NCBI GenBank assembly: GCA_043228905.1
Contig: JBHGNT010000013.1
Location: 17,050,001 to 17,114,000 of the forward strand
Direction of reading: 5' to 3'
DNA length: 64,000 nucleotides
Origin: Azolla caroliniana
Taxonomy: Eukaryota > Plantae > Polypodiophyta
Position numbers and translations under genes: made by a program. Shown in pieces: positions 23,612 to 40,953 of the stretch. The notes beneath the pieces are model-generated. The model was not told where the DNA came from and searched no databases. It worked only from the letters and a program-made list of their open reading frames with translations. How positions within the stretch are numbered: the first letter of the stretch is position 1; every line of letters starts with the position of its first letter.

Positions 23612-26600
23612 ATGCGAGGAGGAGAACTCACTGAAGCGATGGTGACGACGGTGGAACGCTTGGTAAATGCCCAAGAAGGCATCACCGGCCTAGACCGGGC
23701 CATAGAGACGGTGGTTAGCACAACGGGTCGGTTCAACGGAAGAGATACGTTGAGCTACTTGGATGCCTATAAGGCCGAAATGCTTATGCGAAATGTCCCC
23801 GAAGATAGGTGGCTAACCGGATTTGCTAGAGTGGTAACGCCGAGTATCCATGCAGAGGTACTCAAGATCCAAGCAGACTGTTGCAATTGGGAGGAGTTCG
23901 AAGAAAGACTCCTCGAGGAATACGGCCTTGATGACGCACTTTGAATTTCGAAAAGGGATCTAATGGAGTGGGTTGAGCTTCCCGGTAAGGGGAGAAATAC
24001 TATGGCACTTCCACAAGAATTTGAGAAGCGCTTCGTGCGACTCTTGGCTCTCGATAGGATGGTGCTTGACACAAGCAAGGTCCTACTATTCATAAAAGTT
24101 GTTGATGCATGAGACCGAGAGAAGGTGGGGCTCCTCCTCAAAACTGATGATGGGCTCACGACGGATTGGGCTATGGTAAAACAGGTTTGTAGTCGCTTCG
24201 ATAAGAGAAGGGAATGGAACGACGGGTCTCCGTTGAGCGGCCAAACATCCATAGGCTCCATTAGTGAGACACACGAACCCAGGGGTGGTAGAGCACCTCA
24301 AGAAAGAGAGTGTAGAAAGTAGCGTGCGGAAGCAAGTATGAAGACCGAACAGAAGGAAGGAAACTTAGGTTCAATGGAGAGCTTAAGCTTACACGGTATA
24401 CGCAGGAGAGACAGAGAGAGAAACACAAAAAACTATATTCAGCAATAATACTCAGTCTGTACATAAGACGTGCTCAGTAAACACTTTTATACAAGTCCTA
24501 GAAGGACTGACCGAAGTACTGACAGTACTTCAATGCTCATTAAGAGCTCCTACACTAACTCCCAAATATATTCCTCACGGAATATCTTTCCTAACGACCT
24601 CTCGGTTTACGCACTCGGCCTAACCGATTGGTCCCAACCGATCCGGTCCTCGGCTTCTTCAGCCGATCCGGCCGATGTTGAGCTTGTCTCTCAACACTCC
24701 CCCTCAAGCTCAACTTGAGGCTCTTCGGGATCTTCACAACATCGGTTCCTCCTGGCTCCACGCCTCGCTCGCGCTCCTCGACCTGTTCGACTCCGCGCGC
24801 TTCGACCCTTCTGGTCGGCTTGTCTGCTCATGCGGCCCTTATCAGCTCTTTTGCTATTGCGGTGTTGACGCTTCTCCTGCTGCCTTTTCTTCCGCTTGGG
24901 CCTCGGTTGATTCAACGTGTCTGAATCAAACATCCGAACCGACTTGGCTACCTCCGATCGGTCTTCGCTCTCGTCCGAGTTGGTTGTCTCCAACTCGTCT
25001 TCGGTCTTCTCGCCCTCAATGGCGTTATCTTCCCCATGCATGGTTGGCTTCGGCTCTCTCCTTTGGTTGCTCCCCTTCTGTCCGCTTCCGGATTTTTTCG
25101 CGGGTCCGCCCTCGGCTTCTTCAGCCGATCCGAAGTCGAACTTGACAACCGAGTCAACCGAATCAACCGACTTGGTGGTGTCGCGGTCTCCGCTCCTTTC
25201 CTGCTGCCTTGCTTGGTGGACTGTTCTCCCCCTCAAGTTTGGCACATTGAGGTGACGCAATCCGAGCGCACCTGAGAATTGCCGCAACTTGTCCAGACCA
25301 AGAGGCTTGGTGAAGATGTCGGCAGTCTGTCGATCCGTCGGAACGTACTGAAGTTCGACTTCACCGGAAAGGACACGCTCACGGACGAAATGGTAGTGCA
25401 CCTCAATGTGCTTGGTCCGTGCGTGGAAGACAGGGTTCTTCGCGAGTTGGATGCTGCTGAGTTTGTCGTAGTAGATCGTCGTTAGATCGGACACCTCCTC
25501 TCGCAGGTCCTTAAGTAGCCGCTTCAACCATATGGCTTCGCATGTCGCGACAGCCGCTCCTCGGTACTCAGCTTCGGTGCTCGACAGTGCAACTGTCGGT
25601 TGCTTCTTACTGCTCCACGTCATCGCGGCACTCCCGAGGGAGAACGCGTATCCGGAAGTGGATCGGCAATCGGCGGCGTTGCCAGCCCAATCAGCATCGG
25701 TGTAGCCGACTAATTGTGCAGCTGCACCGGTCCGATATAATAGTCCTCGGTCCTTAGTGCCACTTACGTACCGCAGTACGCGTTGCGCACACTGAAGGTG
25801 CTCCTCGATAGGTCGCGCCATGAACTGACTGATCACCCCGACCGGATAACTGAGGTCGGGTCGGGTGATGGTCAAGTATATGAGGCTTCCGACAATTTGT
25901 CGGAACCTCGTCGGGTCGCATACCTTTCCCGTATTGGGACGAAGCTTGACGATTCTGTCAAGAGGAGTCGAGACGGACTTACAGTCGGCCATCCCGAGTT
26001 TGAAGAGCATACTCAGCACGTAATGACGTTGGCTGATCAATATGCCTTCGGGGGTACGGATCACTTCGATCCCGAGGAAGTAATGAAGGTCCCCCAGATC
26101 CTTCATGTCGAACGATGCCGCAAGCTGGAGCTTCACGCGGTCGATTTCACCTAGGTCGGCGCTGGTGATGACCAAGTCATCAACATATAGTAAAATACTA
26201 ACCGGTCCGAGTCGACCTTTCCGGATGAACAGGGAAGAGTCCGATTTTGACGTGACGAAGCCCATCCGACGCAGTTGTTGCGTGATCTTCGCGTTCCAGG
26301 CACGCGGGGCTTGCTTCAGTCCGTAAAGGGACTTCTTCAGTCGGCATACTGCCGAGGAGTTCGTACCAGAGTGAAATCTAGGGGGCTGTACCATGTACAC
26401 CTGTTCCTCAAGGTCACCTTGCAGGAACGCATTCTTTACATCCATCTGATGTAAGTGCCACCCCTTCGCCGCAGCTACTGCGAGCAAGACACGGACGGTC
26501 GTCATTTTCGCGACCGGCGCAAACGTCTCATCGTAGTCGATGCCGTGTTTCTGTGCGTAGCCCTTTGCCATTAGCCGAGCCTTGTACCGGTTGACCGAGC

Positions 26601-29600
26601 CATCGGTGTTGTACTTGACCTTGTACACCCACCTACACCCGATCGGTTTTACCCCCTTCGGTGCGTCAACCAGGTCCCAGGTCTCATTCTCCGCCAATGC
26701 GTGCATCTCTTCCTCCATCGTGGCACGCCAATTCGCGTCTTTAGCCGCTTCTGCGTAGCTCTCCGGCTCACGCACTTCCGCTACACGGGTCATGTACGCA
26801 TAATGATGCGCCATGTACTCGTTGTATCCGAACCGCACAATTGGGTTCTTCTGGCGGGTAGATCGGCGTAATCTCACATTAGCCGATGTCAAGGCCTTCT
26901 CGGTCGACGCGGTCTTCACCTTTAAAGACCCGTCACCGGTTCCCTCGGAGTCGGACTCGCGTTGGTCTGACTCGTTCCTTTCCGTGCCGGAATCCGACAC
27001 CTTCTTCTTCCCTTTCTCTTTGCGCATAAGCCGACTCCTCGGCTTCCTGCGCGGGGAATGCACGACTGAGTCTCCACTACTCGCCGGCTCTTCATCGGAC
27101 TAGTCGTACCGACTCAGTCGTCCAATCGGTCCACTTAAACAGAGTGAAATCGGACTCTCTTCGCGGGTCTCGATTTTGGGCTCATCCGGAGGCATCTCGG
27201 CCTCGCTGACCTCATCGTCAGAGCTTGGATTGGAGTCGAGGTTCGTAGTCGGGGGCAGGTACCAGGACGCAGACTCGTCAAACACAACGTCGCGGCTGAC
27301 ACGCGCTTGTTTGGTGCGAGGGTTATAGCACTTATAACCCTTTTACTCGTCCGAGTAACTGACCAAGATGCATTTCTCGGCCTTTGCGTCCAGCTTCCTC
27401 CTTTTCTCCTTCGGTATATGCACATACGCAATGCTACCGAACACCCTCAAGTGTCGCAAGTTCGGCTTTGTTTCGAAATATAGCTCATGCGCCGACACTT
27501 TGTCTCCAATCCGGTTCTGGATGTATACCGTGGTCCTTACCGCCTCGGCCCAGTAGAACTTGGGCAAGCTCTTCTCCTCCAGCATTGCCCGTGCCGCTTC
27601 CACAACGGACCGATTCTTTCTCTCGGCCACGCCGTTCTGCTCTGGCGTGTATCTACAACTGAATTCACGACGAATTCCCATTTGTTGTAGGTAACCGTTG
27701 AATTGACCGGAAAAGTACTCTTTCCCGCCATCCGACCACAGGCACTTGATCTTTCATCCCGTTTCCGTTTCCACGAACCCTTTGAGGTCCCGAAAACAGT
27801 CGAAGACTTCGCTCTTCCTCTCAATGAGGTAGATCCACGTGTGCCGCGTGTGGTCGTCGGTGAAGGAGACGGAATATCGGCTCCCGCCAAGACTAACGTT
27901 TTGTGCCGGCCCCCATACATCGGAGTGTATAAGGTCGAGCTTGTTCCGGCTCCGGTTTCGCTCGTTGGGGAAGGGAAGTCGATGTTGCTTCCCGAGTTGG
28001 CAGGCTTCACAAATTTGTGCCTTGCGGCCACTAAATTTGGGCAATCCGAACACTACCTGTTTCGATTGCAGATCTTGAAGCCGTTGGTGGTTGACGTGGC
28101 CTATCCACTTGTGCCACAAGTTGATGTCCGACTCGGTCTTTTGTCCCTTCGCAAACATTGCGGTGCCGCCGTCAGTGGAGTCGAGGATGAACATCCTCCC
28201 GTCTCTGCGCCCTTGCGCAATCACACGACCTTCTTCCTCAATGAAGCACTCGAGGTGTGTAAACCGAACCTCCATCCCTTGGTCGACGATCTGTCCGACC
28301 GAGACCAAGTTTTTCGTGATTGTCGGGACGTGCAACACGTTCATGAGTTTCCCTTTCTGCCCGACATGGCTAAGGGGAACTTCTCCGACATTCGCGATCG
28401 GATGCGGAGTGTCATCTTCAGTTGCGACTACTCCAGGTTGGATCGGTTTTTCAAGGTACGAGAACCACTCCTTATGGCTCGTCATGTGGTTTGACGCGCC
28501 GGAGTCTAAGTACCACACCTCATCCGATCTCGGGGTGCTCTGTTTCATTGAGTTTGCTTCATGTCTCGACACGAAGGCAGACCCTTCTCCGGCTCTCCCA
28601 GAGTCTTCGGCGTAGTGCGATTGCTGCCGATTTCCCTTGTCGGTATTTCTGGAGCCATTTCTCTCCGAATTGGGGCGCTTCTTCCAGCACTCACTTTCCT
28701 TGTGGCCTTTCTTGCCACAGTACCAGCATGCCGCGATGGACTTCCCTTGCCGGTTCTCATCGCTTCGACTCCCCCTGTTTCCGGAGGGTCTGGAGTTGCT
28801 GTCGGCATCACTTCGGTGCCTTCTTTCTTGATCTCGTCGGCCGCCTCCATTGCGTGCCGACTCGCCTCGTCTTCCACGTCCACGGGGCCTATCTCCCTCC
28901 GTGTACAACATTCTGCTGTCGGTGTGCGTGCTTGTAGACGCACCTGCGTGGTTCTCCTCTACCAGGAGCATCGACTGTAAGTCGAAAAAGGACGGCGTAT
29001 TCTCCCGGGTACACACAGCCGTTCGAAACGCTCTGAACTTCGACGCCAATCCTCTGAGACAAATCTGGACCATCTCGCTCTCCTCGATGTTCACCTCTAT
29101 GGAGGCGAGGGAGTCGCAGATATCCTTGATCTTCGAGGTATAGTCCGCCACCGACAAGTCGCGTTGTCGTAGGTTGCTCAACTCTTGTCGGAGCTGAAGC
29201 TTCCTGGCTGTGGTGCTCGTGCCGAAAATCTTTTTCAGATTTTCCCACGCACCCTTCGGCGTCTTTGCATCCCGAACATAGCTCAATAGCTGTTCGCCCA
29301 CACACGATGCGAAGCAGTACAATACCCTGCTCGCCGATTGCTCCCACGACGGGAAGTCTCTGTGTGTCGATTCGGGTGCCGCGTCATTAGCTCTTTCGAC
29401 ATAACTCCAGTAGCCATGCCCGAGCAGGTACTGGTGCATCTTGTAGGACCAAGATGCGTAGTTGGTCCTGTCGAGCTTCTCTGTTGGAAGCGAGCTCGCC
29501 ATGCCTCTATCCATCGTTCTTCTCGTTCTTCTTCATCAAGCTGTGTCGGCTGCAGAGAGGTTCTCAACCCTCACGCTCTGATACCATGTAGAAAGTAGCG

Positions 29601-30336
29601 TGCGGAAGCAAGTATGAAGACCGAACAGAAGGAAGGAAACTCAGGTTCAATGGAGAGCTTAAGCTTACACGGTATACGCAGGAGAGACAGAGAGAGAAAC
29701 ACAAAAAACTATATTCAGCAATAATACTCAGTCTGTACATAAGACGTGCTTAGTAAACACTTTTATACAAGTCCTAGAAGGACTGATCGAAGTACTGACA
29801 GTACTTCAATGCTCATTAAGAGCTCCCACACCAACTCCCAAATATATTCCTCACGGAATATCTTTCCTAACGACCTCTCGGTTTACGCACGCGGCCTAAC
29901 CGATCGGTCCCAACTGATCCGGTCCTCGGCTTCTTCAGCCGATCCGGCCGATGTTGAGCTTGTCTCTCAACAGAGAGCAAGCAAATGCAAGGTTTGTCCC
30001 CGAGAGAAATGTGGTTGAAGCACCGTCTGGAGGGTTGGCACTAGACGAGCTCACAAAGATGGTGCAAGATCTCCAACTAGAGCAAGCTAGGAGAGAGAGT
30101 GGCGGCCCTCAAGATCGACGTCCCTCGTTTGCGCAAAGATGTATGTGGTGCGACAATCCCGACCACCTATGAAGGGAGTGTGGAGACTTTCAAGAGGCCC
30201 TAAGAAGGGATATTGTCTATCTTTGGAACAATAGGGTCTATTCGATGGAGACAAGGCGCCCCTTGGGATTGAATCAAGGCCGAGGGGGCATGAGAAGGCT
30301 AATGGAGGAGGCCGAAGCATGACATGTTGAAGCCGT
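23612..30336 (+). pseudogene. Disrupted gag of Gypsy A (23612-24310 plus 29973-30336), interrupted by Copia C and cut by Gypsy B
   Basis: Homologous to the gag of element B (RFNGRD..YKAEMLMR; RCMWCD..H zinc knuckle); in-frame stops. Confidence 0.85.
24311..29972 (-). mobile_element. Full-length Ty1/Copia element C (386-bp LTRs at 24311-24696 and 29587-29972)
   Basis: TG..CA LTRs with about 8 differences by eye; TSD GAGAG; PBS TGGTATCAGAGC (tRNA-iMet); PPT GAGGGGGAG. Domains: gag, CCHC (CWYCGKKGHKESEC), PR (LDSGAS), INT (HSDVWGP, QNGVAER), RT (YVDD), RNase H (HARTKHIEVHYHFVRE). Pol is broken by a few frameshifts and stops. Confidence 0.95.
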
Positions 30337-33300
30337 TGTCGAGGTATTCCTCGCGGATGCGTGGAATGAGGCGGGACCTCGGGGGTCTTGTATCGAAGAG
30401 CAATAGGGAAAGGAGAAGGGAAGGGACTCACTACATGCGGGCGTAGATCCACAGGGACACGGCCCTTCGACACGAAGACGCGAGCGTGGAAACCAACACA
30501 AAGAGGCACAACGGTATGTAAGTGTATATTAACAGAGACAAACAACAAAACACGAAGTCGGTTACAACCGAACAGGCCGACGAACAGATGCCGATGCCTG
30601 TTCGTAAACGCACAGAAAGGAAAGAGTAGGTTGGAGGTGCTGCCGGAAGCACTCGAGCATTCCTCAGAGCAGCGCGAGCCTCCCGAAACCTACACAGCAA
30701 GAAGCTACGAAGTTTGCGAGCCAGAGAGAGAGAGAAGCCTTCACCCACAAACTGACAGCACTTCGTCCTCGACTCTCCGCGATCCCTTTCCTCCTCCTCG
30801 TCTCCCTCCTTTTATAGGCAAGAAGGGAGCCGTTTCCTATTAACTTCGCACCTACCGAATCTACCTACCTAGGATCTTCCATGTCCCTAATTCTCTCTTA
30901 TGTACAACATAAGGCGTACGTGTATGAAGAGCCGGTTCCTATGCTCCGGTGCACCGATTCCGCTCGTGGACGGTTTTCTTCACGACATCCGCCCCCACCT
31001 AACCGCGCATCCACCGGCATGCGCCAAATTGAGTTGGGACGGAGAAAACCGGTCCAGCCTTTATTCCTCGCCCGTCGGTTCTTCTTCGGTTTCAGATCGT
31101 TCGTCGTCCCGGTCCAGGTTATCCGGATCCAGCTCGTCGTCGTGACGCTTCTTGAACGCTTTGATCCGCTTCCCAGCTACCGGTATCGCCATTCTCATGC
31201 CGTCGAGTTCCGCCAGATGGTACGTCCCGTTGTCGTTGGCGCTTTGTACCACGTAAGGCCCGAACCACCTTCTTGCGAACTTCCGTGTCGCTCGGTGCTG
31301 GTTGTCGAGGCTGCTGTCGTAGACTAGCACCCAGTCGCCTTCCTCGATCTTCTTCGGTCGGAGCCGGTGCGTCCGGTCGAACCAGGCTTTGTTCCTCGTC
31401 CTTGCCACCCGAAGCTTTTCCGCAGCCTGCTCCACGTCCTCCGGTCTTCGCTCGAGCTGCCGTATACGCGCCACCAGTAGTTCCTCCCGGCTCATCTCGT
31501 CTCTCCAGTCCACGGTTGCCCACGAGGAGATCGTACGTTCCATCGGCATGACCGGCTTCTGCCCAAACATGAGCTCTGCCGGCATGAATCCGGTTACCGA
31601 ACTGTGCGTAGTTCGGTCAGCTCACAACGCGTAAGGCAGTAGCCGCGGCCAGTTCCCGACTTGCCCCCCGCATGCCCGTACTAACGCCTTGACGATCGGT
31701 CCGTGTCCGCGCTCCACCTTCCCATTCGGCTCCGGATTGTACGCAGTGGTAAGCGAGAGCTTGACTCCTAGCCGGTCGAACAGCTCCTCGGCCTCTTCGG
31801 CGTCCAACTCCCCGCGATTAGCCACGATCTTCCCGACGCACCCGTACCGGCATATCACGTCCTCGACCAGGAACCGACATACGGCCACGGTCGTTTTGTT
31901 CTGAAGGGTCGGCCTTCCACCTGGTTCGTCAGATCTTCCCGAGCCAGGACCAGATACCGCATCTGTCCTACGCCCATCGGCATCGTCACTAGATCTACCA
32001 TCCATTTGAAGTGGATGGTCGGAGGGTACGTAGGGTGAAGCTCGTCCCGATGCCGAACTATGGAGTGCATCTGACAGCTCTCGCAAGTTGTCACGAACTG
32101 ATGCACGTCCCGGTACAGTCCCGGCCACCAGTACTTCCCCTTTATCTTCTCGAACGTGGCCCACGTTCCACGGTGTCCGGCCCAAGGGCTGTCGTGGTAG
32201 GCCGTCAGCAGCTCCTCCTGTTCTTCCTTCATCGCCACCACCCTGAGCGGGACGCCGTTCCTCTTCTTCGGGTGCTTCCATAAGTATCCGTCCCGGAGAA
32301 AGAACCGGTATGCTTTCTTCCGGATCCGGTTGGTCTCGTCCCTCGTCCACGATGCATCCGGTGTCATTGTCCTCAGGAAACCACCGATCTGCAGCCACTC
32401 GCCGTCGTACTTGCTCTCGTCGAAGCCGTTAAGTGCCGGAGTGCTCGTCCCATCGGTCGTTGCGTACGCCGCCTTGAAGAAGTCCACGCCGACTTCTTCG
32501 TCCTCCGAAACCATGCCGCCCTCGTCATCAAACCTCGCCCTCGAAAGCATGTCGGCCATGGCGTTGTCCTTTCCGGAAATGTGCCGTATTTCCGGGTCCA
32601 GGGACTTGATGTATGCTATCCACCTGAGCATCGCCAGGTCCGGTGTCGCGCATCCGGAAACCATGCCGAGAATTGGCAGGCAATCCGTCTCGATAATCAC
32701 TTCTGTCCTGATCAGGTAGTCTTTGTCGGCCTTTACTACCGAAACGATACCCCAGAGTTCGCGTTTAACCTGGGCGTACCCTCGCTGTCGCTCACTGAGG
32801 ACCTTCGCGCCGAATCGGATCGGGAACCGTATGCCGTCCTCATCTTCTTGGTTGACGACCCATCCGATCCCGGTCGGACTCGTATCCACTGTTATGTATA
32901 CCGGGGTACCCTTCTCGTAGTCAGCCTTCCAGAGCGCCGGTGCTGCCGCAAGAGCTTCCTTCAGCTTCCGGACCGACTCCGTGTGCTCGTCTTGCCACTC
33001 GAATTTTCGCCCTTTCTTCAGCAACCCGTATAGTGGCTCCGCAACGTGGGCGTAATGTGGGATCCATATGTGGTAGAACGCGCATGCCCCCAGGAACCTC
33101 CGAACTTTCGTAACCGAGCTACAATCGGTCTTCATCGCGGAGATGGCTTCTACTTTTGCCGGAGACGGCTTCCGGCCATACGGTCCGCACAGGTGTCCGA
33201 CCACTAGGATTTCTGATTGCCCGAAGGCCGATTTCTCCCCGGAGAAGGTGAGCCTCGCATCCTCTAGCCTTTGTAGCACCTTCTCGCAGTCGTCGATGTG

Positions 33301-36300
33301 TCTTGCCACGAATCGCCGGCATCCGTCCGGCCCGACTGTCTCGTCCTTCTCTTCCACCGGGCACCCCTTTATCGGGATGTCGTCCAGAAATGGCATGGTG
33401 ATGTCCGGGATGCAATCCCTCAGTACCTTGTTCATTGCATTCACCATGTGGGCCACCGAGTTGGTCCCTCCTTGTGGCAGGGTACACATTCGCACTAGGC
33501 CGAGGGGAGTTCGCATCGTCGTAATGTCTCTGCTCTCCACGGCTAGCTGGAACTGGTCGTACCCCGAGTACAGATCACCGACCGAGTAAATCGACCTTCC
33601 GGCGAAGGCCTCCGCGAACTCGTCTATGGTCGGTCCGATTCCTGCGTTCCGAATGGTCACTCTGTTGACTGGCTGCAGGTCCTGAATGAAGTGCAATGTT
33701 CCGTTTTTCTTTGGTACGGTAAACCATCGGTTCGAGTATGGCGCGCTCGACGGTTCGAGAATACCCATATCGACTTTCTGCCTCAGTAGCTCCATCAACT
33801 CCGGGATGTGAGCTCTTGGTACCGGAATCGGCTTGAGATTCCACGGCACATGCGGTACCATGAATATCACCATCGGCTCCACGATTGTCGGGTCTACGCA
33901 CTCAATCTCTTCCGGCGAGAATGCGAAGGCTTTCCCGTGCCTTCCGAGCATTCTCTGAAACCGGTCTTCCTCCGCCGGCAGTAGGAACCCGCCCCCACCG
34001 ATCTTGAGCTCCCGGAGCGTCCCGTCGGTGAAGGTGTGTCCTATGCAGGCCGGATCTCGTAAACTGGGGTCCGACGCAACCCCTCTGATTCGGGACTCGC
34101 TGCCCTCCGATAAGGGTGCCGCGACTGGCCTTACCTTCCGGTCCACAGTCTTGTACTTCGTGCTAACTCGGGCTGTCCGATCTGACCGGAGTCCCTGGCT
34201 GAAGTTCGTGATGACTTCGTACATCTCTTCGGAACATACCGGTATCGTCCGGTCTTCGTTAAGGTCTTCTCCGACTACCTTCCTCAGCATCCCCAAGGTG
34301 TCGTCGAAGGAGACCGCCTCCACGGCCCCGCTGATTTCCTCGTCCGGGCCGAGAACTCCGCACGCTCGAAGTTGCTCCTCCGCCCTTGCCCTTTCTCGAC
34401 CAACGATGCCGACTATTATACACCCTCCGTTGTTGGAGAAGCAAAATTTTCTACCCATCGTACAAGGTTTCTTCGGTTTCGGTTCTATCGTACAGCTGTG
34501 GGGTCTTTCCCGAGTGTCCGGACTGTCTCGGCCCCACGCCTTGGCAGCCCTCTCTAAAAATCCTCACGGTTCTCGCCACCGAGGGATTCTCAGTTTCGCT
34601 CGTGGTTCGGTCGCACCGTCAGAAATTGGACCGAATGGCGCCCGTCCTGGCTTTTGACCCTCGCGTAGGCCGAACCGTTGTCTAGCACCTTGGTCTCCAT
34701 CCGCGCCGCCGTGATGTATGGTTCCCCTAATATGACCGGGTGCGAGGACGTCTCTTGTACGAAGAAGTGCTAGTCAATCTCGACGTCGCCAATCTTGACT
34801 CGCACGTTCGGGCAGGCCCCGTGCAGTTCCTCGGTGGCGCGCGTCGCCGCTCGTATCTTCCACCCGTGCTTGGTGTTGATCGGCCACTTTCCCTTCTTAT
34901 AGAAGTCCATGGACATCAGGTTTATTTCCGAACCGTGGTCCACCAATGCCACCACCGGTTCCTGAACGTCTCCGATCTTTACCGGGGTCTCCGTGGTTGC
35001 TCGGGCCCAGTGCGGCCTTGAATAGTGGCTCTCCGCCCACTCATCTTCCAGCGCCATGTCGTCAATGCGCGTTGTCCGCACCTCCACCGGTCTTTCCGGT
35101 TCCGTCTCCGTCGACAGCCTCTTCCGTTTCACCAGGTCCACAATGGAGTCGTGGAACTCCTTCTTGGCGATCCCTAGCACCTCTCGCAATGACAACTCCA
35201 CTTTGCTATCGAGGATCCGTTCTTCTAGGACCTTTCGTAGGTCCGTAGTCCTTTCTATTTCCGTCCCTAGTCGGTATCCGCCCTTCCTGGGGTTATCTTG
35301 CGAGCTGGACCCACCGGCATCGTTCCGTCGTTGCCCGAATCGGGTCTCGTACCGTTGTGAGGGCCCGGCCGCTCCGGCTTTCCCCACTCGTTTGTCTTCT
35401 ACCAGAGCCTCGTAGTTCCGGTAGGCGGCTTCTACGAAGCCTGTCTTCTCCTCGACCGGATCGCTCCACCCGGTTATTTCCCGGACCAGTCTCTCAGCGC
35501 TGTCCGTTTCATCTTTCCTTAGTCGTGCGCTGGCAAGACCTTCCAGCATTGCCGACCAGAATCCGTCTTTGCCCTCCTTTCGGGCCTCGCTGCCCCCGAC
35601 CCGAATGCCGGCCGACGCCGAGTAGTGGATGGCCTCCACGTGTCGGGCCGCTGCCTCTTCCATCAGTCTCTTCATTTCTCCTCGCCCGTCGTTTCGGTTT
35701 AGGGCCCTTCTGGTGTCGCCGACGTGCACTCGGCCTTCCTACAGGTACACCACCCGGTTCCTCAACGCTTCTGCGAAATCGCCGCAGTCCTTTCAGATAT
35801 GGCCGACCTCGTCGCACCACATGCACCTTTTCCCTGCTACCGGCCGTCGGTCACGAGCCGGTTCGCCGCCTTCCCTTCGAGTCTGGGCGATCTGGAGATC
35901 CTTTATCGCCCGCGTCAACTCCTCCAGCGCTGCTCCTCCGGACGAGCCACTGACCATGCCGGTCGAAGCCGGACTGGTTTCGAGCCATTCCCGGGTTTCT
36001 TCCCTTCGCCCTTGTGGTGCCGGTTCAAGCCTCCTTGCTGTGACAGAGCCTGCACCAGCCGCCCCGTTGTCAGCCCATTCTCGCCGTTTGTCGAAACGGC
36101 CACAGACTCTCTTAACCGCAGCCCAGGCGGTCGTCAGCCCGTCTTCGGTTTCCAGTAAGGAGCCGACTTGATCCCGGTCCCACTCGTCCACCGACTTGAC
36201 GAACAGTAGGAACCGGCTCGTATCCAGAAAGGTTCGGTCAAGCGCCGAAAGCCGCGCAAAGCGTTCTTCGAACTCCCGGAGGAGTGCCGACGCATTTCTT

Positions 36301-37374
36301 CCCTTGCCGGGGGACTCCACCCACTCCATGAAGTCCCGTTTCGAAAGCCGGAGCGTGTCGTCCAACCCGTATTTTTCTAGGAGTCGACCTTCGAACTCCT
36401 CCTAGGTACGGCTCTCCGCCCGCACCTCGAGCACCTCCGCATGGATGCTCGGCATCGCCACTCGAGGGAACCCGGCAAGACGCCTCTCTTCCGGAATGTC
36501 CCGCATCAGCATTTCTGCCCCGTAGGACGCCAAATACTTCGTGGCGTCCTTTCTGCTGAACCGGCCGATCGTACCGACGATCGCCTCAATGGTTCTATCG
36601 AGGGCGCCGGTGCCCTCGCGGGCGCTCAATATCCGATCCACTACCGAAGCCATGGCCTCCGCAAGATCCGACCCCTTCATCTTCTGCTCTTCTGCCGCCT
36701 CCTTCACGTCGGGTTCACCAAGATGTCGAGGTATTCCTCGCGGATGCGTGGAATGAGGCGGGACTTCGGGGGTCTTGTACCGAAGAGCAATAGGGAAAGG
36801 AGAAGGGAAGGGACCCACTAGGTGCGGGCGTAGATCCACAGGGACACGGCCCTTCGACACGAAGATGCGAGCGTGGAAACCAACACAGAGAGGCACAACG
36901 GTATGTAAGTGTATATTAACAGAGACAAACAACAAAACACGAAGTCGGTTACAACCGAACAGGCCAGCGAACAGATGCCGATGCCTGTTCGTAAACGCAC
37001 AAAAAGGAAAGAGTAGCTTGGAGGTGCTGCCGGAAGCACTCGGGCATTCCTCAGAGCAGCGCGAGCCTCCCGAAACCTGCAGAGCAAGAAGCTACGAAGT
37101 TTGCGAGCTAGAGAGAGAGAGAAGCCTTCGCCCACAAACCGACAGCACTTCGTCCTCGACTCTCCGCGATCCCCTTCCCCCTCCTCGTCTCCCTCCTTTT
37201 ATAGGCAAGGAAGGAGCCGTTTCCTATTAACTTCCTACCTACCGAATCTACCTACCTAGGATCTTCTATGTCCCTAATTCTCTCTTATGTACAACGTAAG
37301 GCGTACGCGCATGAAGAGCCGGTTCCTATGCTCCGGCGCACCGATTCCGCTCGTGGACGGTTTTCTTCACGACA
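30337..37374 (-). mobile_element. Ty3/Gypsy element B, non-chromovirus, Phygy/Selgy-like (651-bp LTRs at 30337-30987 and 36724-37374)
   Basis: PBS at 36703-36720 is the complement of tRNA-Trp; PPT AGGTGGGGGCGGA. Domains: gag, PR (LVDHGSEIN), RT (FLDD), RNase H, INT (HHCC, GPY); no chromodomain. The LTRs differ at roughly 25-30 sites and the flanks do not form a TSD. Confidence 0.92.
34498..34563 (-). promoter_or_regulatory. Putative -1 ribosomal frameshift signal (G GAU UUU plus H-type pseudoknot)
   Basis: The Gag-PR frame ends GAG GAT TTT TAG, and the -1 frame is open straight into the 867-aa RT-RH-INT ORF. Stems are GGGCTG/CAGTCC and GTGGGG/CCCCAC. Confidence 0.75.
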
Positions 37375-39125
37375 AAGTGCTTGGCATTCGAAGATAACGC
37401 AATATCTTCATCAAATCGGCTTCCGTATGTCAAAATCGAACAACTCCCACTACATACGAAGCAATTCCGCAAGTCCGATCGTCATCATGTTATATGTGGA
37501 TGACCTAATCGTTGGAGTTGAGCATCTCGTCGAAATCAATAAGGTCAAATCCCTCCTTTCCGACAAGTTCGAGATGACGGACATGAAGGAGCTCCACTAC
37601 TTCCTCGGCATCGAGGTAATTCGGACTCCGGTCGGGATCATGATCTCTCAACGGCAATACATCCTCAACTTGTTATACAAGTTCGGTATGGCTGAGTGCA
37701 AATCCGTGGCAACCCCGCTCGATCGCAATCTCAAACTAGATGCGAACTCCGACACCGAAGCGCGTGAGCCGACTCAGTATCAGCAACTGATCGGGAGTTT
37801 AATTTACCTCACGATCACACGACCCGATCTTAGTTATCCGGTCGGTCTCCTTAGCCAATTCATGCAAACACCGCGTGATACTCACTTGGATTGCGCTACG
37901 CAAGTTCTATGATACGTGAGCAACACAATGGATTGCGGCATCCTCTACAAGACCGCGATGCCAATACGACTCGAGGGGTACACAGACGCCGATTGTGCCG
38001 GCTACAAAGCTGATAGAAGATCAACCTCCGGATTTGTTTTCTCCCTCGGCAGCGGAGCAATATCCTGGAGCAGCAAAAAGTAACCAATCGTTGTTCTTTT
38101 GAGCACAGAGGTGGAATATAGGGGTGCGGCAATGGCCGCATGTGAAGTCGTATGGCTCAAAAGGATACTCAAGGATCTGGCCGTAGCCATCAAGGATCTG
38201 ACTTCCCTTTACTGCGACAACATGAGCAGTATCTATCTGGCTCGGAACCCGGTGTTCCACGCTCGGACAAAGCACATCGAAGTGCACTATCACTTCATCC
38301 GAGAGCACGTTCTAGCTGGCGATGTCGACCTACAACACATTAGCACAAATCTTCAAACGGCCAACATCTTCACTAAAGCCTTAGGCGTTGACAAGCTCTG
38401 GCAATTCATGACCGATCTCGGATTGACAATCCTTGACTTGCCAAGCTTGAGGGGGAGTTTTGAAGACACTACGGAATGACGCGTGGATTCCGCAACCGCG
38501 CAACGAAGCTACAATAACGTGTGGATTCCGCAACCGCGCAACACAGCCGTGCAGAACCGATCTACCGCGCAAAGCCGTGAAGAAAGACTCAAGCCGAAGC
38601 ACAAACTTTGCAACTACGCATAACGCAAGCTGGAGCACGGATTCTGCAACTCTGCATAAATGCGAGTCAACGCGGACTCCGGAACGCGAGTCGAAGCGGA
38701 TTTCGGACACCGTATGAAACCGGCCCAAGTTGAGCTTGAGGGGGGGTGTTGAGAATCAAGCTCAACTTGGTCTAGTGTGTGAACTCACCTTGAGAGTGAA
38801 TAGACACTCCAACAGTCAACAGTCACCATTTTGTATTCTAGCATTTAGTATGAGTCATAGAATCATATTCTATGACACATAACTTATGAGCTTTCACATT
38901 CCCTTTGCTCCATGAGCCTTGTAGTTAATGAAGAGAGAGGGTGACTATATAAAGCACTCTCCTCCGACCTTGTATAATGTTGAGTCTTTCTCCTTTGTTA
39001 ATATACTTTTACCTTGCGTATTCTCTGTGTATTATTCCTTGTCTCTCTCACTCACACTCTCTCTCTCATCACACACATAACTCACATCTCTTCCGCTTCA
39101 CAAGAATCATATCCGATTCTTTACA
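37375..39125 (+). mobile_element. 3' half of Copia element D (RT end, RNase H, PPT, 3' LTR 38747-39125)
   Basis: LYVDDL, RPDLSYPVG and HARTKHIEVHYHF motifs; GAGGGGGGG then TGTTGAG...TTTACA. Confidence 0.88.
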
Positions 39126-40953
39126 GTTTCGGATAACGAGGAAGTCGGCGTGGACTTCTTCGAGGCGGCTTACATAACAACACGAAAGGGGAGCACTCCG
39201 GCGCTTAACGGATTCAACGAGAGCAAGTATGACGGGGAGTGGCTCTAGATCGGCGGGTTCCTAAAGACAATGACACCGGACGCGGCGTGGACGAAGGAAG
39301 AGACCAACTGGATTCGGAAGAAAGCGTATTGATTCTTCCTATGGGATGGGAGCATATGGAAGCACCCAAAGAAGAAAAACGATATCCCGATCCGAGTGGT
39401 CGCGAAGAAAGATGAATAAGAGGAATTGCTTACGGCATACCACGAGAGTCCCTGGGCCGGACACCGCGGGATGTGGGCCACATTTGAGAAGCTAAAGGGG
39501 ATGTACTGGTGGCCGGGGCTATACCGGGACGTGCATCGGTTCGTGACGACTTGTGAAAGCTGTCAGGTGCACTTCATAGTCCGACATCGGGACGAGCTTC
39601 ACCCGACCTACCCTCCGTCCGTCCACTTCAAGTGGATGGTGGATCTGGTGACGATGCCGATGGGGGTAGGGGTGCAGTATCTGGTGCTGGCTTGGGAAGA
39701 CCTGACGAACCAGGTAGAAAGCCGAGCGTTGCAGAACAAAATGACCGCGGCCGTGTGCCGATTTCTAATCGAAGAAGTGGTATGCCGGAAGAGCTGTTTG
39801 ACCGCCTAGGGATTAAACTCTCGCTCACCACAACGTACAATCCGGAGGCTAACGTGAAGGTGGAACGCGGACACGGGATGATCGTCAAAGTGTTAGTACG
39901 GGTGTGTGGAGGCTGATTGTCAAAGTGTTAGTATCGAAGAAGATCAAGGAAGACAATTGGGTGCTGGTTTACGACAGCAGCCTCGACAACTAGCACAAGG
40001 AGACCCGCAAATTCGCGAGGAGATGGTTTGGGCCCTACACGGTGACGAGCACGAACGACAACGATACGTACCATCTTGGGGAGCTTGACGGGACATGATT
40101 GGCGGTGCCGGTAGCCGGGAACCGGATTAAAGTGTTCAAGAAGTGGTACGAAGACAAGCCAGAGCGGGGGAGCGATAACGATGACGATCGGTTCGGGGAC
40201 ACCGATAATTCGGAGAGCGACGAGTGAACGCCAACCGATTTTCTCCGGTATATATCCCTCTCCGGCGCATACCGGTGGATGCGCAGTTTGGTGGGGGTGG
40301 ATGTCGTGAAGAAAACCGGCCAGAAGCGGAATCAACGAAACAAAGCGCATGAACCGGCCCTACACTTTTCCATACCAATTAATACCTTGTACATAACTGG
40401 GAGTAGGACAGTGGGTGTAAATAGACTAGATGTGATGCATTGAATGTCTAGGAAATTAAAGAGTATCTTTGTCCGAAAGGACAAGGAATACATTGATGAA
40501 AAAGAGGGTGCAACGGCTTGCCTCGACGACCTATAAAAGGGAAGGAAGAAGGCGGATGAAGGGATCGCGTTTTGGGGGAGTGAGGACAAAGTGCTGTCGG
40601 ACTAGGACCGAGCTCTCTCCTCGATTGTTCGTCATTCTCTGCGGGATTTTGGACTGAGTTAGCTCTACTTCATGGACAACCCGTGTGCTTCCGGTAGAGG
40701 CTCCATAGTGCAGTCGGGGCTGTGTGCGTGCGTGAGCATCGTGTGTGTGTGTGTGTTCGCTTGAGTTGGGTCCGTTGCCGGCTTGCCGGTTGTAATCGTT
40801 ATTGATTTTGTAATTAAGACTTGTTCTCTCTTTCTCCATTTGTGTTCCTGCAAATTGCTCTCTCTCTCTCTCTCTCTTCTTTCTCACGCTCCTTGGTTCA
40901 AGGCCCCTGCGGTCCCGCCACTTTCCACACGCGAAGAGCGTAACAACTCGACA
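39126..40953 (+). mobile_element. 3' part of Gypsy element E, related to B (internally deleted INT, PPT, LTR 40302-40953)
   Basis: Homology to B pol (EEVGVDFF, HESPWAGHRG, CESCQ); PPT GGTGGGGGTGGA; LTR TGTCGTGAAGAAAACC...CTCGACA. Confidence 0.88.

Follow-up and report, generated by a model that had tools for sequence, protein, structure and literature searches.

A conserved junction between Gag-protease and a −1 RT frame in a Phygy-like Gypsy lineage: likely programmed ribosomal frameshifting at G GAU UUY

Introduction

The DNA analysed here, termed the window, is a 64,000-nucleotide stretch from Azolla caroliniana whose minus strand carries a dead tRNA-Trp-primed Gypsy element between two 651-bp LTRs. 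The Gag-protease (Gag-PR) frame of this element terminates GAG GAT TTT TAG, and the RT frame is displaced by −1 relative to it. We consider the locus (probability roughly 0.9) to be a conserved junction of a Phygy-like Gypsy lineage, between Gag-PR and a −1 RT-RNase H-integrase frame, that likely directs programmed −1 ribosomal frameshifting at G GAU UUY, with a predicted pseudoknot downstream as the likely stimulator. The frame offset, heptamer phase, adjoining stop, 6-nt spacer and covarying stems are found lineage-wide.

Layout and state of the element

The features of the element, in window coordinates, are as follows:

36724..37374, minus strand: 5′ LTR, 651 bp, TG...CA; 28 differences from the 3′ LTR, 24 of them transitions
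36703..36720, minus strand: primer-binding site, tRNA-Trp type, 3 nt past the 5′ LTR
34554..36680, minus strand: Gag-protease frame, 708 codons plus stop
34725..34985, minus strand: aspartic protease domain, DHG motif; PF13650 (E 0.004) and PF13975 (E 0.011), both matches below the curated cut-offs
31855..34563, minus strand: Pol frame (−1), with a linker of ~130 codons, RT, RNase H and the start of integrase
31061..31906, minus strand: remaining integrase, following a frame change near 31900; stop at 31624
30988..31004, minus strand: polypurine tract-like run, judged from sequence only
30337..30987, minus strand: 3′ LTR, followed by ACGG; the 5′ end lacks a matching target-site duplication

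The element is 7.0 kb long, and its interior is taken up by Gag-PR and Pol, without an extra ORF. We take its primer site to be the complement of tRNA-Trp; a motif of this type also occurs in 32 of the 56 junction-bearing sequences described below, many of the others ending short of that region. Gag-PR of intact relatives measures 671–803 aa counted from the first Met (nine loci). The same two protease families were matched in one of three intact relatives, and a PDB sequence search with the protease region of one relative gave no meaningful match. A Pfam search of seven frames detected no chromodomain and no archaeal-type RNase H. In these elements Gag closes with PF13352 (DUF4100), and the linker of ~130 codons ahead of RT (Pol frame, 34170–34400) is conserved across the lineage without a Pfam match.

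The Gag-PR frame is interrupted by five stops, at 36404, 35795, 35741, 34772 and 34592. The first-pass annotation of this DNA had called the copy dead from stops near 34590, 34770 and 36402; all three were found, and the integrase is broken as well. The −1 frame comprises 902 open codons from 34563 and holds RT, RNase H and an integrase zinc finger (Pfam). It had been described as an open RT-RNase H-integrase frame, which is true of RT and RNase H. The frame change near 31900 and the stop at 31624 leave only part of the integrase within it. The copy is dead, yet its junction signal is intact.

The flanks look rearranged: ACGG on the 3′ side fits the 4-bp NCGN duplication of Phygy, and ACTT on the 5′ side does not match it. 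These flanks (30333–30336 and 37375–37378) adjoin copia RT sequence at one end of the element and, at the other end, a lineage-related Gag fragment (30011–30304, plus strand), which suggests recombination between the LTRs of two insertions. Other fragments of the lineage, two Gag pieces and an integrase piece, lie at 23612–24307, 30011–30304 and 39126–40191, none of which includes the junction. The two Gag pieces (23612–24307 and 30011–30304) are possibly one copy, split by a copia element at 24311–29972.

The junction signal in the window copy

The first-pass annotation had placed a heptamer, a stop, a spacer and two stems on the minus strand, and each was recovered at its position:

34557..34563, minus strand: slippery heptamer G GAU UUU, in phase with Gag-PR
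34551..34556, minus strand: spacer of 6 nt, opening with the Gag-PR stop TAG (34556-54); from sequence
34543..34550, minus strand: stem 1, 5′ arm, starting GGGCTG (34550-45); from covariation in relatives
34520..34527, minus strand: stem 1, 3′ arm, ending CAGTCC (34525-20); from covariation and run variants
34532..34537, minus strand: stem 2, 5′ arm, GTGGGG, inside the loop of stem 1; from partner comparison among relatives
34498..34503, minus strand: stem 2, 3′ arm, CCCCAC, 16 nt past stem 1; from partner comparison among relatives

A −1 downstream ORF, an in-phase heptamer and a putative stimulator within 5–9 nt are all present by sequence. Stem 1 had been given as GGGCTG/CAGTCC. That pairing is present, but the stem extends over eight positions (34550-43/34527-20) with one C.A mismatch, and spans 31 nt. 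The structure had also been called a classic H-type pseudoknot. Its predicted topology is indeed H-type, and comparison among relatives indicates that the loop of stem 1 pairs with the 3′ segment, if weakly in five of 28 representatives. The compact classic form, with 0–1 nt between stems, does not describe the window copy, in which 4 nt (34531-28) separate the 5′ arm of stem 2 from the 3′ arm of stem 1, or 6 nt if stem 1 is taken as 6 bp. Nested folding of the window junction yields either stem by itself.

Within the window, the motif on its own is not beyond chance: a loose heptamer-plus-stem pattern gave three matches against 1.76 expected. The case for the signal rests on conservation among relatives rather than on the motif of a single copy. 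Rfam returned no matches in five loci and in window 34300–34800.

Conservation among relatives

Relatives were collected as DNA through an alignment of 69 Pol proteins. The resulting set of 83 loci comprises 80 of 322 matching metagenome loci, the other 242 lying outside it, and three contigs from prokaryote assemblies; viral contigs yielded no matches. The three contigs (L081–L083) are plant-type retroelement sequences filed under a cyanobacterial and a Streptomyces assembly, a placement that is likely due to contamination. Counts leave out 28 of the 83 loci, mostly short contigs, in which there was no protease match upstream of RT or no RT match; one of these, L057, has unrelated sequence upstream. 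The 55 loci with a protease upstream of RT and the window constitute the junction set (n = 56). The loci are not independent, as most trace to some twelve assemblies with similar numbers and represent collapsed repeat families. Junction-bearing elements span 64–95% RT identity.

Relative to Gag-PR, RT is in the −1 frame in 54 of the 56, in the −2/+1 frame in two and in frame in none. Using a pattern that allows slippery forms, an in-phase slippery heptamer was located in all 56: 46 GGATTTT, five GGATTTC, two GGTTTTT, and one each of GAATTTT, AAATTTT and GGGTTTT. The slip sites GAAUUUU, AAAUUUU and GGGUUUU (L043, 1461–1548; L044, 523–610; L047, 1563–1650) accompany unrelated stem sequences in the same geometry. 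For L036 and L038, the second of two heptamer matches, beside the stop, was picked by hand; L036 (2748–2847) has two in-phase GGATTTC sites 12 nt apart ahead of its stop. A stop codon directly follows the heptamer in 49/56 (21 TAG, 18 TAA and 10 TGA), and the spacer before stem 1 is 6 nt. Across 28 representatives, the codon ahead of the heptamer takes 14 forms for 12 amino acids, yet its last base is G in 27, versus 28% third-position G in the protease, which argues that the constraint acts on the nucleotides, or RNA. From the slip site to RT, the Pol frame is open in 55/56 over 116–153 codons, and the other frames hold 2–24 stops; the exception is L035, whose Pol frame is interrupted by a stop after the slip site.

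These counts bear out the −1 arrangement after the protease that the first-pass annotation had proposed for the lineage; that ribosomes shift there, we infer. The annotation would have given up its reading had most copies held PR and RT in one frame, a state found in none.

Contigs of four sequencing runs (three organism labels) were aligned to window 34380–34720. No 1- or 2-nt indel occurred there at a share of at least 3%, and the only indel was one of 6 nt at 34480. In the 40 rows listed out of 98, the heptamer, stop and stem 2 showed no variant.

Covariation of the stems

Stem 1 was evaluated using 45 distinct junctions. Overall, 88.6% of 405 cells were paired, against 22–42% in slid controls. 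Seven of nine pairs changed on both sides, with 50 two-sided changes, and the covariation score exceeded those of 500/500 shuffles; the number of pairs changed on both sides was not significant by itself (137/500 shuffles). In 26 of 28 representatives, 7–8 of eight fixed positions were paired. Within the four sequencing runs, variants at the two partners 34545 and 34525 occur in comparable proportions (46/39, 47/45, 64/47 and 9.5/9.0%), and a run variant at 34544 would pair with 34526.

Because the loop varies in length, MAFFT alignment misplaces stem 2, which was therefore tested free of alignment. Specifically, the loop of each of the 28 representatives was paired with its own and with the others' downstream windows. 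The energy was −10.9 kcal/mol for the own partner, −8.3 for others' partners, and −5.1 and −4.5 for farther windows. The preference for the own partner was matched in 0 of 20,000 permutations, a test without control for relatedness or base composition. The own partner was better in 23/28 representatives and no better than others' in 5/28. Stem 2 has at least 5 bp in 27/28, and its 3′ arm lies 10–16 nt past stem 1 in 23/28. Matched arms include GCGAGA/TCTCGC (L030), GCAGGA/TCCTGC (L078), ACAGGG/CCCTGT (L026) and ATGAGGGT/ACCCTCAT (L034). Both stems covary, and the heptamer reads GGATTTY in 51/56 junctions; conservation of these features was what the first-pass annotation had proposed to check.

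Taxonomic range

The search for Gag-PR proteins was restricted to 394–1257 aa, a range that excludes long fused forms. It gave 120 matches, among which 93 of 94 contig-called proteins stop just past the protease, 67 in DF. Named relatives were from Physcomitrium patens, Adiantum nelumboides and Riccia, each with elements that end Gag-PR as the window element does. The P. patens proteins, at 48–67% over the protease region, were among the best Gag-PR matches. Three of them end DFGE(V/I)PL and others contain RDYGGT; both peptides are also encoded by the stem region of L030, read in the 0 and the −1 frame. This correspondence suggests that the moss elements likely share the junction. Models joining PR to downstream sequence are frequent in these species (14/18 in P. 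patens, 2/5 in Adiantum and 18 long models in Riccia), with join points that differ by model. Read from the protein models alone, these joins look like predicted introns. Among cluster representatives, 17/67 run on past the protease.

The tree was built by a quick method and omits six P. patens RT pieces that were too short. A 40-row clade (SH-aLRT 97) contains all 28 representatives, and fused PR-RT proteins at 32–47% RT identity, including those of Tilletia and Coprinellus, fall outside it. As these distant fungal-type relatives are fused and outside the clade, the split seems to characterize the plant clade, on a midpoint-rooted tree in which long branches meet. A single protein within the clade, P0115, has protease and RT fused in frame, and is a candidate reversion or an indel in one assembly. 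It has the peptide GFF at the expected position of the slip site (protein only).

Alternative explanations and proposed mechanism

An indel confined to this dead copy or introduced in assembly, together with chance stems, would be in keeping with the state of the window copy and with the chance rate of the loose motif in the window. However, the offset, heptamer and stems are common to elements at 64–95% RT identity and no junction of the 56 is in frame, so this explanation was rejected, its likelihood being negligible. Transcriptional slippage, in which some transcripts gain a base on a T run, was likewise rejected as next to impossible: such a run does sit at the junction, but it is just 3–5 T long in most elements, reads GGATTTC in 5/56, and leaves no role for a downstream knot at ribosome spacing. 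A slight chance attaches to Ogre-like splicing, whereby an intron across the Gag-PR stop would be removed from some transcripts to join PR to RT, the stems guiding splicing. Ogre does so at the same position, according to the available text of PMC6317226. Moss, liverwort and fern gene models fuse PR with Pol sequence, and many P. patens models exit the frame at the same peptide, KDFGE/K, a possible real donor. Nonetheless, acceptors are scattered among the gene models, no donor is conserved (the best GT position is common to 10/28 representatives), and the Pol frame reads through the putative intron without a stop in 55/56. Moreover, splicing has no need for a slippery heptamer that is in phase and keeps a constant distance of 6 nt to a stem. 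We hold it just as improbable that Pol is synthesized separately, by reinitiation or internal initiation past the Gag-PR stop, with the structure as an entry or packaging signal. The stop does adjoin the structure, and the window copy has an ATG at 35 codons into its Pol frame. Across the 56, however, the first Met falls anywhere from codon 3 to 111 in a frame that is open back to the heptamer in 55, and the heptamer and fixed −1 offset are left unexplained.

Under programmed −1 frameshifting, the reading that we prefer, ribosomes would meet the knot at their entry channel on arriving at GAU UUY. The majority would terminate, releasing Gag-PR ending Asp-Phe. A minority would pause there, GAU occupying the P site and UUY the A site, then re-pair on GGA and UUU, and produce Gag-PR-linker-RT-RNase H-integrase. 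With the shift placed after the protease, protease would be made one-to-one with Gag, and RT and integrase would be rationed. Frameshifting would also explain the inconsistent introns patched into the moss, liverwort and fern gene models at this position.

A branch with a −2 offset

The two elements with RT at −2/+1, L034 and L077, are 77.5% alike and form a clade (support 100, quick tree) among −1 elements. Three changes set both apart: Pol has moved to the −2/+1 frame, the slip site reads AG GUU UUU instead of G GAU UUU, and the spacer is 5 nt. Both stems are kept (junction regions L034, 2830–2917, and L077, 2492–2579). In L077, both frames are open, over 761 and 1106 codons. With GUU UUU, the A-site tRNA can re-pair once a −2 shift has taken place; GAU UUU would not allow this. 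The members listed from two protein clusters of the L034/L077 type were 15/35 and 4/4; of the listed members, all eight that extend to the C-terminus close with QVFD or QVFY, and eight listed Pol members start in the matching frame. Repeated assembly of the same families may account for these members. Another, distant Gag-PR (P0419) ends KVFY.

From these sequences, we think it somewhat probable that L034 and L077 form a branch with RNA-stimulated −2 frameshifting. With similar, modestly favourable odds, a non-seed-plant lineage would ration RT and integrase by a pseudoknot-driven frameshift after the protease, and L034/L077 would have switched to −2 through linked changes in spacer, heptamer and frame. 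A +1 shift, or a shared defect, is a candidate in place of the −2 shift. In vitro, a spacer shorter by 1–2 nt favours −2 (PMC3458567, available text), and the 5-nt spacer of L034/L077 agrees with that rule. If true, the −2 reading would mean that a plant mobile element naturally uses RNA structure to drive a −2 frameshift, and would offer a convenient way of testing the spacer-tension model.

Comparison with known systems

Phygy, a group of non-chromovirus Gypsy elements, in the available text of Neumann 2019 (PMC6317226) has a tRNA-Trp primer site (81%) and a length of 7.7–10.0 kb, and its ORF organisation is listed as not determined. The window element resembles it in its tRNA-Trp primer site, in a coding region that fills the interior and in having no extra ORF; in addition, P. 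patens proteins show the same junction peptides in both frames. It differs in its 7.0 kb and its lack of a matching target-site duplication. The affinity with Phygy suggested by the first-pass annotation thus fits the primer site and the P. patens relatives.

The same annotation had regarded a break after the protease as atypical of plant Gypsy elements, which overstated its rarity. In the portion of PMC6317226 available, PR/RT breaks are given for Ogre (35% spaced and 14% stop, by intron, at the same position) and for Retand (GAG-PROT:stop:RT, 49%). The overlaps of Tcn1, Selgy and SIRE lie before the protease, and that portion lists no lineage with overlapping frames after it. Such a break is therefore common among plant elements; it is the overlapping −1 mechanism that stands out. 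The Tat-clade elements Ogre and Retand share the position of the break, but Ogre has an intron and Retand an in-frame stop, where the window lineage has an overlapping −1 frame. Membership in Ogre/Retand was rejected on 0/56 junctions in frame, no conserved donor and a Trp-type rather than Arg/Lys primer site, and membership in Selgy because Selgy has a tRNA-Ala primer and an overlap before PR.

No prior report of the junction was found in the literature, subscription papers and repeat databases being outside the search; the accessible parts of PMC11963269 and PMC12885004 make no mention of it. A 2003 survey of gag-pol junctions, as relayed by the available text of Atkins 2016 (PMC5009743), gives plant cases as +1 only. 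The junction would add a −1 example that combines a slippery site proven in plant viruses with a predicted pseudoknot backed by covariation, and the junction set contains dozens of naturally occurring versions of a single putative stimulator for plant ribosomes.

Cases of −2 frameshifting named in the same excerpt are phage Mu, arteriviruses and Trichomonas virus 1 (PMC5009743). The arterivirus nsp2 −2/−1 site, GG_GUU_UUU, works without RNA structure and needs proteins (PMC4937337, available text). L034/L077 resemble it in AG_GUU_UUU and in the −2 shift required, and differ in keeping both stems, with a 5-nt spacer.

As the first-pass annotation had noted for dianthoviruses and umbraviruses, GGAUUUU is functional: the heptamer G GAU UUU of pea enation mosaic virus (PEMV) works in wheat germ extract (PMC4737148, available text). 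From the same source, the PEMV heptamer accepts any stop behind it, and shifting drops by 72% when a sense codon stands there; the interchange of TAG, TAA and TGA behind the heptamer here matches this behaviour. Umbraviruses and dianthoviruses (PEMV RNA2) and the window lineage have in common G GAU UUU, a stop at or 3 nt behind it, a 5–6-nt spacer and plant ribosomes. The viral structure is a bulged hairpin that pairs with a site kilobases away, whereas here the second stem is local, 10–16 nt past stem 1, in a retroelement. The alpharetrovirus Rous sarcoma virus has its protease at the end of Gag. Its gag-pol junction is like this one in a −1 shift with a pseudoknot ahead of RT, but it belongs to another family and has another heptamer, so the two are convergent at best.
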